A stretch of 64,000 bases of DNA. It comes from Eledone cirrhosa (Eukaryota). Below, one piece after another: positions 14,598-21,657 of this stretch; within the stretch, counting starts at the first letter, position 1, and each line of letters begins with the position of its first letter. The notes beneath the pieces are model-generated. The model did no database searches, was not told the DNA's origin, and saw only the letters and a program-made list of their open reading frames with translations. The stretch spans positions 113,770,001 to 113,834,000 of the forward strand of contig OZ024745.1 of assembly GCA_964016885.1 (NCBI GenBank), read 5' to 3'. The translations under genes were made by a program, and so were the position numbers.

Positions 14598-14944
14598 AGA
14601 AAGTGGGTTTTTTTTACAAAATGAAAAATAACCGATGTGTCCTACACGAGTGAAAGTATAAAGAAAAAAGATGAAATCGAAAATGCAACTGGAGTCTTAT
14701 TTAAAAAATATATATATATTTATTTGATTCCTTTACCGGTTTCGCAGTTCTTCTGCTTTTCAAAAGTAGAGTTGAGATGGAGGGTCTGTGGTTTTTCTCA
14801 CATGTGAGGAAAACCACAGACCCTCCATCTCAACTCTACTTTTGAAAAGCAGAAGAACTGCGAAACAGGTAAAGGAACCAAATAAATTTATAAATTTTTT
14901 TTAAATAAGACTCCAGTTGCATTTTCGATTTCATCTTTTTTTCT
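14598..14944. mobile_element. Fold-back PLE-derived mini-element (family C) with variant HHR in each arm
   Basis: Loopless palindrome centred at 14802/14803 with about 142-bp arms, left tail 14598-14660 and TA flanks. HHRs at 14731-14766(-) and 14839-14874(+). Confidence 0.85.
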
Positions 14945-15660
14945 ATATATATATATATGTTTTAAGTATGTGCTTGCGCGCGTTCGCTATTGAAATCTTG
15001 CGCTGGTGTGTCTGTTGTAGTATATCTGTACGTTTACTTGTCCTTTTGCGAGAGCGCATTTCCTTCTCTTTTCTTGATTCATTCAAAAATACTTTTTTGA
15101 ATGGATTTATGTTACAAAACGTTGCTACTTAGAAACATACTGGAAGTTATTTTAAGCAAAGGAACTTCAGTTTTAGAGAACAATAGTCGAAATATTTTTG
15201 TGACACAATGAACTGATTTCGCTAAATTTCAAGAATACACAAATAGAAATATAGATGCAAAATATTAATAGTATTGTGATAGGATATACGTGTATGTATT
15301 TATAACTCTCTCTCTCTCACCTTTTGACTCTCTGTCTCTATCCCCTACCCATTTCCTCCCCCCCTCCCTTCTCCCCCCTCTCCCTCTGAGTGTGGGTGTG
15401 TTTGTGTATTCTAATGTGTTTTAGAGAACCCTAACAATCCATATATGGTAAGTGCAATGCAGCAATAGGCAAGAAGAATATTGGTTCATTTTTTCTTACC
15501 TTTTTTCACATTGGTATAACTAATAATTGATACATCTCTGTGGGATAAACTCCTACTACTATGAACGCGCAACAGAATATTCTTTAACATCAATATTAGT
15601 ACTTTCCCATGTGAGTGTTAGAGCACTACTTATAGCTATTATTTTTTTTCGCGGATTTTT

Positions 15661-16062
15661 CCTGATAAAATTACTAGATTGTCTCATAGGAAAATATTAA
15701 TTTTCATAGAATTACTAGTTTTTCCAAGGAAAAAAAAAAGTAAAATTAATTTGATTAGCAAAAATCAGGTTTCACCGTTGATGATTACTAGATTACCCTA
15801 CGGGAAAGAATGATTATTCATAAACTTACTAGTTATGCCAACGAGAAAAGGCAAAACAAAAAAAAAAAAATTATAATTTCATCAACAAAATTAAGTTTTA
15901 TCATCGCTGCGCCCAGATAGGAAAGTATTGATATTGATGTTTATAAATATTTGGCGCAGGGTGATAAAGTTACTAAATTACCCCACGGAAAGTATCAATA
16001 TTCATAAAATTACAAGCTGTACCAACAAGAAAAACCAAAGAAATTAATTTGATCACCAAAAT
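15661..16062. repeat. Degenerate repeat of about 120 bp, 3 units
   Basis: Recurring tgataaa.ttactagattaccc...ggaaa...ttcata.aattactag...ccaa.gaaaa...aattaatttgat.a.caaaa at about 15661, 15779 and 15961. Confidence 0.55.
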
Positions 16063-16479
16063 GTATTACGCTTGCTGCGTTTTGTTGCGATGTATTTACC
16101 GCAATTCACTGCAATGAAAGCTAAAAATAAATATAATCAAAAGCAAATCAAAAACAATGGTTTGCAGTTTTATTTTATAATTCAATATTTTGGTTTTTAA
16201 AAGATTTATCAAGGAAATCGATGAAGAATTAGCTTCGTACTTCATTTGCACATGTATATGAAAATAGTGGGTGCAACAAGAGCAAATAGCGTCATAGTAA
16301 TCAAACAGCGTTATACAGTTCCTGTCTGTTGTTGATTGAAAGAATCAGTTGGTCGATAATGATTGCCTCTCTAACACTGACATTTATAATAGTCCATTCT
16401 TTGGCTTTTTTGAGGACCGTAATATGATGCTTGTAACTGAATGTATGTGTTATTTAACCCAGATTATTGTAATCCACAA

Positions 16480-16930
16480 CACACTCCTCTGAGCCCTCCT
16501 AGAAAATGCCTGTCACAAAAATGGTCCCATACATGATCACAGAGAACGCACATTGGCTAACTGCCTTATCAACAATCTTGACGTAAATGTAGGAGCTTAC
16601 ATGGTGAATCGCAAAATATGTTATAAGTGTGGTAGATCTTATGTCAGAAGTATCGTTGGTAATCGCAGCAGTCCATGTCATTACATGAACAACCACCTCC
16701 AAACCCCAAACTTCAGAAATAACACAGCTCAGAACTGCTACATTAACATACTAAAACACATTGCCTCTCACAACCAGGCAGAAAAACACAGGAATCCAGT
16801 CACACAGAAATAGCTTCATTGCTTACAAACATTGTACAGGGATGAACACGTCCAACAATCAATGCAGATGAACATTAACTATCACGCTCCGACCTAGTCC
16901 ACATCACCTGCAACCGTTGCATCCCTCAGC
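16480..16930 (+). mobile_element. Degraded GIY-YIG endonuclease remnant (PLE-like)
   Basis: NCLINN...AYMV..KICYKCGRSYVRS......HYMNNHL resembles C..N..Y...CxxC...YVG.T....RM..H. Confidence 0.45.
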
Positions 16931-18075: not shown

Positions 18076-18369
18076 TCGTCAGAACATATCTATTTTCTTA
18101 TCGCGGTACGTACGTGTGAATAAAAAGTGTTTAAAATTTAAACTTATTAATTAAGTTTCGATGTGAGTGAAGTGTATAGCTTTAATTATAAAAAATGTTT
18201 TTATTTTTCATTCCATTACTCTTTTACTGATTTTATTTTTTTCTAATCTACTACAAACTCTTCTAGATTGACGGAAGATGTGCAGTGTAGTACCAAGCGG
18301 CTACCGTGGCTGGCAATGGTCACAAAACACAGAGACACTGGTACGATCGTTGGTGGCAGTTTCTATTTT

Positions 18370-19960
18370 TGCATTTTTGCATTTTTGAACCAATCTAAAG
18401 AATACGCAAGAGGAACAAGGAGATGCGCACTCTGCATAAGTGAAAAATATTGGATTTTTAGAACCTTAAATCACCAAAAACCTGCCTAAATGCAAAAACA
18501 GAAATTTTCACCAGTTGCCCACACATGAAATCACACTTGCTTTCCAGCTCATATAAACTTAACTCACTTTCAGATACTTATCCTCCATAAACTCTTGTTC
18601 TTCACTTTCCTTAACTTACCTTCTTTACAGTCTTCTCTTTCTGATTTACTTTTATTTTTATTTTTAACTTTATTTTTACTTCACATCCACAATGACCCCC
18701 CCCCCCTACTTTTTGATTCACTTATATTATATCTTCACAATTTTACATATTTAACTTCTCTCTTTTCTTTCACTACCTGATATTACGAGTCACTTGCGTT
18801 CTCAACTCCAGATATATTCTGTTGTCCCTCAGCCGCTTTTATGTATGTTTACTTGCGTATAATTTGTACTCATTTATTCATACGGTTGGTTTTTATATTG
18901 TATGTATACGTGTAAGTGTGCATATGTCTGTATACGTGTTTGTATATGTATACGAATGCATTGGTATGTGCGCGTGTATGATTATATGTGTGTGTGTATG
19001 TGTGTTTTTATATCTATGTTTTTTACATACTTATATATGTGTGTGGGTGTATATGTATATATATGTGTATATATATATATGTATATATATATATATGGTC
19101 GCGTGCGTGCGTGTGATTAGATGTACATGTATGTATATATATGTGCTTCGTGTGTATGTATGCGCGCTTTTGTATGTATGTACGCATGTATGTGCTTTTT
19201 TCTGTACGTATTTATATATATATTTATATATATAAATGTGTGTACTAACCTCTGTATATTTTCTATTTTTTCTAGTGTTACACTATAATTGATAACCCCC
19301 CCCCCTCTTACTTTCTCTTTGATTTAATTTTTTTATTCTCATATATTTTTTCATTTTTTCATTTTCATATTAAATATATTTTTATATATATATCCACCTT
19401 CAGCCTGACAATGCTTTGACTGATACACTCCCTTCCCTGTAAATATCACATGCATGCATGTGGTTGCGCGCGCGTGTGTGTGTTTATACGCGTGCTTTCA
19501 TACTTGTATGTGTATATATTTCAATCCTTAGTCTCTGAGTCTGTATGTACGCTAACTCTATTATCTTACAATTTCTTTTTTCAACATATATTATATACGT
19601 ATTTGTGGTCACACATACACTGATATGCTTACCCTCATGTATGTACTTACGCACACATTTTTTTACTATACACATGCATTTATACATACACACATATGTA
19701 CATTTGTAGGTGTATATACACACATTTATACACATACCCTTACTATATTTCCTTATTTTATTTTTATATATCTCTTGCATTACTTTTATATATATAATTT
19801 TTTGCCCGTTAAACTTTTGCCTTTCTTGAGGATATTTTTCAAATATTTCACTCTGTTTTAAATTGCCTTGTCTGACGAACGAATGAGGACGTTTCTTGTA
19901 TTCGTCTTATTCGGGAAACCTCTGGTAATGAGGTAATTATATTGTATTGTTTATTATATA
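18370..19960 (+). mobile_element. 5'-truncated Penelope-like element: EN C-terminus, 3' UTR and HHR, ending in (TA)n
   Basis: EYARGTRRCALCISEKYWI then, after a frameshift, CLNAKTEIFTSCPHMKSHLL, matching the CxLCxxEK...LNxxxE...CxH tail of Neptune-type PLEs as I recall it. HHR at 19872-19935: CTGACGA-stem II-GAAA-cctc/gagg-TA, stem I degraded. Confidence 0.75.
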
Positions 19961-20000
19961 TATATATATATATATATATATATATATATATATATATATA

Positions 20001-21657
20001 GTTAAAAGAATAGAGGTGTAACACACAAGTTATTATATATTGGTAAACGGAATAGAAAATGCTGACAAATTGTTCACAGTTGAAAAATGGTTTAATTAGG
20101 AATAAAAGAGTATTAGTGATTGTATGGGTTAGTATTCAGTTGTGGTTTAAAGTTTTTAAGTTTTTACCGGTTGCGCATTTCTAAATGCTTTTCAAAAATA
20201 ATTTTGAGATAGAGTGTCCGTGCTGTTTGCTCTGATCTGATTAGTTTTGGGAATTCTACCTGTTTTTATGTTAAAAAAATGGCTCCAGCGTTATTTTTGT
20301 GTTGCAAAAATGCTTGTGGTCAAAACAATTTTGTGTGTGTGTGTGTGTGTGTGTAGTAGTAGTAGTAAGGTGTTCGATGCTGCGACAATAGCCACCAGCG
20401 ATGTGTGTCAAATGGCTATTAAGATAAGTGTGTGTGTGTGTGTGTGTGTGTGTGTGCGTACATACACACAGCAGAGTCATTCGAAGGTCAAAAGATATTT
20501 TTCAGCTTTTGTCTTATACGGAGAAGTGCGTGTGTGTGTGTGTGTGTGTATAAGTCTCTTTGTATGTTGATGTACGCGTGTGTATGTGTTTGTGTATATA
20601 TGTGTGTGTGTGTGTGTGTGCGTGTGTGGGTGGACCAGTATTTTTTCCCCCCTGGTAAAATGGTGTACATTATTCGATTTTTTCAGTAAAATCGGTTCTC
20701 TTAATAGAACATCAACAATCTTAACAATAAAAGGTGTGAAATGATATTCACTATATATATATATACACACACACACACACACATATATATATATATATTT
20801 TCACTACATATATATATATATATATATATACATATATACATACATATATATGCACATATATTTTTTGTATTGCACCATAGAGCATGTGTGTTTACGTGTG
20901 TCATTGTGTTTATATGTGGGTAGAGATGTGTGCTGATGTAGGTATGTATGTTGACGTGTGTATGTTGTGGGTTCGTCTTAGGGAGAAGTGTTTAGACGGG
21001 GTCCGTATTTGTTAATGAAGTAAGATTCCTTGCTGATGCGCTGGGTGTGGGTGGCATTATCTTTTACTACACACACACACACACACACACACACACACAC
21101 ACACACACACACACACACACACACACACACACACACACACACACACACACACACACACACACACACACACACACATTTGTTGTGAAAGAGTCATTTCTCA
21201 ATCTTGGCGCAAAACCAATTTTTTATCCACATGACCTCTACCGACCAATCAAAATTGTTTTGACCATAATTTTTGCTGGAGCCACTTTTCTAACATTTTA
21301 ACATAAAAACAGTCTTGGCGCAAAATCAACTTTTTACATTCACATGACCTCTACCGACCAATCAAAATTGTTTTGACCACAAGCATTTTTGCAACACAAA
21401 AATAACGCTGGAGCCATTTTTTTAACATAAAAACAGGTAGAATTCCCAAAACTAATCAGATCAGAGCAAACAGCACGGACACTCTATCTCAAAATTATTT
21501 TTGAAAAGCATTTAGAAATGCGCAACCGGTAAAAACTTAAAAACTTTAAACCACAACTGAATACTAACCCATACAATCACTAATACTCTTTTATTCCTAA
21601 TTAAACCATTTTTCAACTGTGAACAATTTGTCAGCATTTTCTATTCCGTTTACCAAT
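20001..21657. mobile_element. Fold-back PLE-derived element (family C relative), about 300-bp arms with about 1-kb spacer
   Basis: 20035-20333 is the reverse complement of 21363-21657. Partial tandem re-duplication at 21199-21380. Variant HHR at 21497-21535(+) and about 20160-20198(-). TA flanks. Confidence 0.85.

Follow-up and report, generated by a model that had tools for sequence, protein, structure and literature searches.

Minimal hammerhead ribozymes (HHRs) with a palindromic stem III were described in the pseudo-long terminal repeats (pLTRs) of Penelope-like elements (PLEs) by Cervera and De la Pena in 2014, together with a dimer model (PMC4209133). Monomers of these ribozymes were inactive and dimers had low activity, and trimming of transcripts to unit length was proposed for the elements. 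A U3-A8 variant had about 1,300 hits in Schistosoma mansoni, and the row S. mansoni(4) reads UUGAAAA. Covariation from C3-G8 to U3-A8 was also found in other natural hammerheads by Perreault et al. in 2011, where U3-A8 is cited as active in vitro (PMC3088659). The role of hammerheads in PLEs is unsettled (PMC8557442). Here we analysed a stretch of 64,000 nucleotides (nt) of Eledone cirrhosa (contig OZ024745.1, positions 113,770,001 to 113,834,000), hereafter the window, in which a preliminary description had noticed a hammerhead family with TTGAAAA in place of CTGANGA. Its letters at 14839-14874, 21497-21535 and about 62043-62077 and its hammerhead architecture, in which U3-A8 is a compensatory replacement for C3-G8, were confirmed on re-reading. 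The novelty it saw in U3-A8 did not hold up, since both PLE minimal HHRs and other natural HHRs with this pair are already in print, and the present family adds only a large new example of it. A lineage-wide A13C, found in one of its families, is a core change for which we found no description in the literature searched.

The parent element and its copies in the window

The motifs are probably minimal type I hammerhead sequences in the pLTRs of Neptune-type PLEs, and this degree of confidence applies to the whole explanation, including slow dimer-dependent cutting. Three families, A, B (with sub-lineages B1 to B3) and C, carry the U3-A8 core, and their copies run upstream into PLE coding sequence. 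Locus L292 holds a full-length tandem whose unit measures 4,805 nt; its two pLTRs are direct repeats, and each carries the motif. The tandem is arranged as pLTR with motif, open reading frame (ORF) 1, an overlapping reverse transcriptase (RT)-endonuclease frame, a 3' untranslated region (UTR) of about 1 kb, and pLTR with motif. The motif strand is the sense strand of the ORFs, and the motif lies about 1 kb past the RT-endonuclease stop and, in the tandem copy, about 0.2 kb before ORF1. ORF1 of family B (L292:3907-5271, minus strand) has about 435 codons from its first ATG, overlaps the RT frame and had no Pfam match. At locus L290 an open frame of 784 amino acids matched Pfam RVT_1 (E 2.6e-7) and GIY-YIG (E 2e-6), and a CX4CxxC linker could be read in it directly. 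The element inserts into (TA)n targets as tandem and inverted 5' copies, with a one-sided tail that is the start of the body coming after the upstream pLTR (about 40 nt in B, 60-70 nt in A). Its 3' UTR carries microsatellites within.

The CX4CxxC linker, GIY-YIG domain, (TA)n targets, inverted copies and one-sided tail together match the Neptune type of PMC8557442, so a Neptune assignment fits, made by these motifs rather than by an RT tree. Neptune-clade PLEs in Craig et al. (2021, PMC8557442) likewise have a C-terminal GIY-YIG, a CX2-5CxxC linker and (TA)n targets, and show partial tandems, inverted 5'-truncated copies, a tail at one end and an HHR near the 3' end. A linker of the CX2-5CxxC type is not exclusive to Neptune and is present in Nematis too. 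The motifs resemble the HHRs of Cercyon of S. mansoni (PMC4209133) in being type I, in lying in pLTRs, and in their G10.1-C11.1 pair, palindromic stem III and putative short stem I. As with the PLE HHRs of the same paper, most copies are solo and truncated or form inverted pairs, and the UUGAAAA heptamer is in common. Unlike the Cercyon variant, they lack an additional nucleotide between A9 and G10.1, carry a palindromic insertion of 2 nt in stem III (ACCGGU) and have GUA as the predicted cut triplet; they also come from a putatively Neptune-type parent, number more than 24,000 copies and include one lineage with A13C. Non-LTR retrozymes are likewise repeats with type I HHRs that descend from the pLTRs of PLEs (bioRxiv 10.64898/2026.07.22.740005). 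The window copies do not fit that kind of element: they have a coding parent and occur as inverted or solo PLE ends, where retrozymes form head-to-tail arrays of non-coding units.

The window holds five motif copies, four in two inverted insertions and one in a relic. Because copies pair up as arms or pieces of single insertions, the observation rests on two insertion events and one relic. The first insertion is a palindromic head-to-head joining of family A PLE ends at 14597..14949, flanked by (TA)n, with arms (14657-14949, 94.6% identical) that meet at about 14803 and an extra tail on the minus arm at about 14597-14656. Its plus-strand motif (14839..14874) consists of stem I ctt/aag, the TTGAAAA core with U3-A8 at 14842-14848, stem II GCAG/CTGC, GAAA, CAGG and TA, and has its predicted cut after 14871. 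CAGG gives this copy a non-palindromic stem III, a minor variant. The minus-strand motif (14731..14766, U3 at 14763) has CCGG and thus the palindromic stem III ACCGGT.

The second is a complex insertion of family B3 at 20001..21662, 93-100% identical to the 3' part of the element at locus L061. It is made up of an inverted 3' end with tail (to 20333), an inverted internal piece (20332-21064) and a forward 3' end (21127-21662). On the minus strand, 20981..21064 holds the end of the family B ORF for the GIY-YIG endonuclease, its final 28 codons (tblastn, 100% identity). The motif at 21498..21534 (plus strand) has U3-A8 at 21501-21507, GCAA, which is A13C, a palindromic stem III and a predicted cut after 21531, and an identical motif lies at 20162..20198 on the minus strand with U3 at 20195. 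The preliminary description had recorded GCAA without flagging A13C, had missed the Penelope-like membership and had not listed the copy at 20195. An old family A relic at 62021..62138 (plus strand, 74-77% identity) contains the motif at 62043-62077, which is without G5, C11.1 and one A of GAAA. The palindromic stem III described earlier holds for four of the five window copies, relic counted, the exception being the copy at 14842. The covariation of stem II claimed between the two window subfamilies comes down to a difference at the fourth pair and in the loop.

Core state and stems across families

The host genome (3.0 Gb, microsatellite-rich) was searched with a pattern in which positions 3, 7, 8 and 13 were left open, with the reversed pattern as control. 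The results showed 24,384 genome-wide matches against none for the control, counting only copies that still fit the rest of the pattern. U3-A8 was present in 24,252 of them (99.5%), C3 in 85, every one with A8, and U3-G8 in 47, and C3-G8 was absent. The fixation of T3 and A8, which the preliminary description had asked to be examined, was thus found genome-wide. Such near-uniformity follows from descent from U3-A8 master elements, so it is no proof of selection. A U3-G8 intermediate lineage was considered and rejected, as its 38 scattered copies were read as decay. With stem II relaxed, 1,105 further matches were found (control 1), among them family C, which differs from A and B in stem II and at position 7. 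A C3-G8 sister with the identical ACCGGT stem III was not found by a genome-wide pattern (0 matches) or in a second check (0 of 38), so that the direction and time of the 3/8 switch in A, B and C could not be shown. As had been expected of CUGANGA descriptors, Rfam gave no hammerhead match at the gathering threshold in five loci, canonical-core copies included, and a scan of the window showed no hammerhead among the best 150 of 526 matches.

Conservation was then compared between families. Families A and C lie 3' of ORFs whose linker and endonuclease share 45-64% identity with those of B (about 50% in the endonuclease), and the 3' UTRs of A or B gave no blastn match to C. The similarity of A and B is confined, simple repeats aside, to about 120 nt that end at the motif, and between A and B3 the differing positions were 5 of 35 in the motif versus 79 of 151 in the flanks. 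The stems around the motif were conserved, with 95% of 104 stem cells paired among 13 lineage representatives, which stand for only three independent families and from which the structure itself was drawn. Both partners had changed in four of the eight pairs, to which stems I and II contribute two each. The closing pair of stem II, G10.1-C11.1, was kept in all 13, while 10.2 and 10.3 switched on both sides. For stem I, 87% of the cells were paired and two of its three pairs covary. Position 7, the free position of the core, was variable.

The 464 kb of unselected sequence around the window were scanned with a descriptor in which position 3 could be C or U and position 8 could be G or A, each free of the other. 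The scan gave 22 hits, compared with 2 in five shuffles, of which 13 were C3-G8 and 9 were U3-A8 (one probably by chance), with no mixed cores. The motifs are non-random, both in the genome-wide matches against a zero control and in the descriptor hits against shuffles. An unrelated family, E, comprises 2 listed copies with C3-G8 and 7 with U3-A8, at 68-84% DNA identity between the two types, and is a direct double 3/8 switch in the host genome. Selection on the fold is supported by this family together with A, B and C, whose stems I and II covary around an unchanged core. The claim that the double change reflects selection is therefore borne out only in part, as fixation shows descent and it is the comparison between families that backs selection.

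Family E is a short element of about 330 nt with long palindromic stems III (L013:580, L088, L177, L192, L212:6723, L214 and L216:9822). Two further unrelated U3-A8 hammerhead families with other stems were seen at L082:2871 and L232:432, and U3-A8 occurs in several hammerhead lineages of the host genome.

Predicted cleavage and the A13C lineage

The motifs likely act as slow, dimer-dependent self-cleaving sites that would process tandem transcripts of the element. Because a single motif is unable to close its 2-bp stem III, two motifs would pair through the ACCGGU palindrome as a double hammerhead. Two motifs in a tandem or read-through transcript would thereby pair, cut slowly after GUA and trim the RNA to unit length, with the U3-A8 pair standing in for C3-G8 and positioning nucleotide 8. 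RNAcofold predicted an intermolecular stem III in 13 of 15 U3-A8 representatives, and stem II was predicted in cis. Families A and C are somewhat more likely than not to cleave measurably as dimers, and measurable cleavage of family B with its A13C is doubtful.

Activity is probably low, with most RNA copied back to DNA uncut. Insertions extend 70-170 nt beyond the predicted cut, and none of 90 5' ends of A and B lay within 3 nt of the cut, while 35 of the 90 clustered 62-85 nt upstream of it, suggesting that most of the copied templates had not been cut at the motif. This cluster may mark a transcription start. Canonical-core families likewise have almost no 5' ends at the predicted cut, so such a footprint of cleavage does not discriminate. 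Folding penalties and a core-burying hairpin were not counted toward inactivity, since canonical controls were as bad or worse.

Three further observations concern the same region. In A and B (window 14799-14806 and 21455-21462), 5' ends and palindrome centres gather after a CAG some 40 nt before U3, at a site that could be a transcription start or a splice acceptor. Head-to-head B3 pairs with a spacing of exactly 81 nt occurred 5 times among 100 matches listed. In A, B and most representatives of C, the core is preceded by a TCAA (window 21487-21504 and homologous sites) able to base-pair with U3-A6, most strongly in B.

Several results weigh against selected, dimer-dependent cutting. The number of pairs changed on both sides was reached in 438 of 500 shuffles, and family A sub-lineages with a broken fourth stem II pair multiplied too. 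The search pattern for family C had fixed the core, so the invariance of its core is partly built in; the evidence that escapes this bias is the independent descriptor over 464 kb and family E. Stem I measures only 0-5 bp, and the predicted monomer folds lack it (probability at most 0.02 in 15 of 15). A double-mutant scan of a type III HHR found rescue by the C3G/G8C swap only, the other mutants there being low (PMC9901934), which counts against high activity. Finally, C13 is fixed in the youngest, autonomous lineage.

This last point was followed in family B. GCAA was found in 10,845 matches, about 45% of the U3-A8 set, and only 148 matches with the B-type stem II had another base at 13. Among 100 of these 148 that were listed, a hand count gave 51 T, 34 A and 15 G, and no B sub-lineage with A13 was seen; about half being T is as expected for decay from a C13 master. 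C13 is present in both pLTRs of the full-length element at L292. The sub-lineages form a ladder from the basal B1 to the youngest B3, along which stem II lengthens from 4 to 5 bp. Median divergence from the majority was 1.5% in B3 and 3.0% in B1 and B2 (the 13% of family A in this comparison is inflated by non-element flanks), and a 221-nt B3 query had 41 best matches, of which 29 scored as exact (40 scored of 222 candidates). Between B2 and B3, 0 of 32 motif positions and 17 of 157 flank positions differed (p 0.037), with p 0.058 for B1 versus B3 and 0.50 for B1 versus B2. After A13C the motif was therefore altered less than its flanks, on weak statistics. Contigs were also compared from four public runs, which carry the labels of three organisms, are of unrecorded kind and include one study that may be the source of the assembly. 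They showed no substitution of at least 10% in 21482-21546, and 24 such sites elsewhere in 451 nt. Two other lines were discarded: one comparison of a B3 with a B2 copy (19 synonymous and 19 non-synonymous changes in 221 codons), too confounded by decay for use, and family D (51379/52702) as a second position-13 variant, since it is another PLE type with its own canonical HHR.

A13 is part of the hammerhead consensus core (PMC3088659), it pairs with C17 in a solved structure (PMC7092961), and GAAA stands in each of the 56 PLE HHRs chosen as representative in PMC4209133 (Fig. S3). The core variants in the text of PMC3088659, figures aside, are A6C, the insertions A6a and U13a, U15.1-A16.1 and U10.1-U11.1, and A13C is not among them. 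We found no report of A13C in hammerheads in a literature search that did not extend to figures, classic mutagenesis papers and most subscription papers, so its absence from print is not established. The rule around position 13 (G12-A13-A14, A15.1-U16.1, H17) is kept in A and C and broken at 13 in B, which makes catalysis doubtful for copies of the 21501 type. We tentatively suggest that the youngest autonomous PLE lineage may run on a core breaking a supposed invariant, U3-A8 plus C13 with A17. It would then be either a new active core, with a 13-17 swap, or the first clear example of a dead hammerhead that selection maintains in an active PLE, as a fold for RNA pairing or RT binding.

A rather unlikely alternative to cutting in all families is that the motif, at least in B, no longer cuts and is kept as a fold, with stem II and a palindromic kissing site, for RNA pairing, RT binding or template switching. 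The near-exclusive C13, the consensus place of A13 and its contact with nucleotide 17, the lower rate of change in the motif past A13C and the longer stem II would all agree with this. So would an upstream hairpin that buries U3-G5 in B (probability 0.98-0.99) and the multiplication of Naiad PLEs without canonical HHRs (PMC8557442). However, U3, U4, G5, A6, A8, A9, G12, A14 and GUA are fixed in B, which would be superfluous for a mere kissing hairpin, and a canonical-core control is equally buried with a larger folding penalty, so the folding argument does not discriminate.

It is improbable that the B core is active in a new way, with C13-A17 swapping the A13-C17 contact, or with A13 freed once G8 had become A8. 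The lineage stayed active with C13 through three sub-lineages, and A17 is present in all B copies, as a swap of the solved contact would have it. C keeps an exocyclic amine like A. Against this, A13 is retained in families A and C, although these share U3-A8 and A17 with B, and in the 56 representative PLE HHRs with their uniform GAAA. That the motif is an inert relic riding on successful masters, its uniformity being recent common descent only, is very improbable. Single changes at decay-like rates (the 85 C3 and 47 G8 copies) and near-identical youngest copies would agree with it, but the motif outlasts flanks that blastn no longer matches between A or B and C and its stems covary, so that the between-family comparison largely refutes it.

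The sister lineages A (A13) and B (C13), each with about ten thousand or more copies, form a natural experiment that makes the role of PLE hammerheads directly testable. Should B RNA prove unable to cut, an active PLE can do without cleavage and yet conserve the fold; should it cut, the consensus for hammerheads behind every descriptor search is too narrow.

Other hammerheads and repeats in the window

Canonical CUGANGA minimal hammerheads with a UAUAUA-type stem III were seen in the window at 31081 (minus), 31148 (plus), 55828 (plus), 61254 (minus, a relic), 61419 (plus) and 62844 (minus). This canonical-core family, with 15,511 genome-wide matches for one pattern, is tied to another PLE type. 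It adjoins ORFs with a CxCx5C linker and is Hydra-like by motif.

Family D is a young PLE, found at 52936-52986 (plus) with a mirror near 51100 (minus), and at 52702 (plus) and 51379 (minus). Its top matches were 99-100% identical, among 1,307 candidates. It has a canonical HHR with U-U at 10.1-11.1, about 240 nt upstream of which lies a degenerate hammerhead-like stretch with U3-A8 and GGAA, and its 3' UTR of about 3 kb is mostly microsatellite. An inverted relic of family C 3' ends lies at 58034-58302, and a 761-nt inverted repeat at 31711-33686 has arms that are 99% complementary and 454 nt apart.

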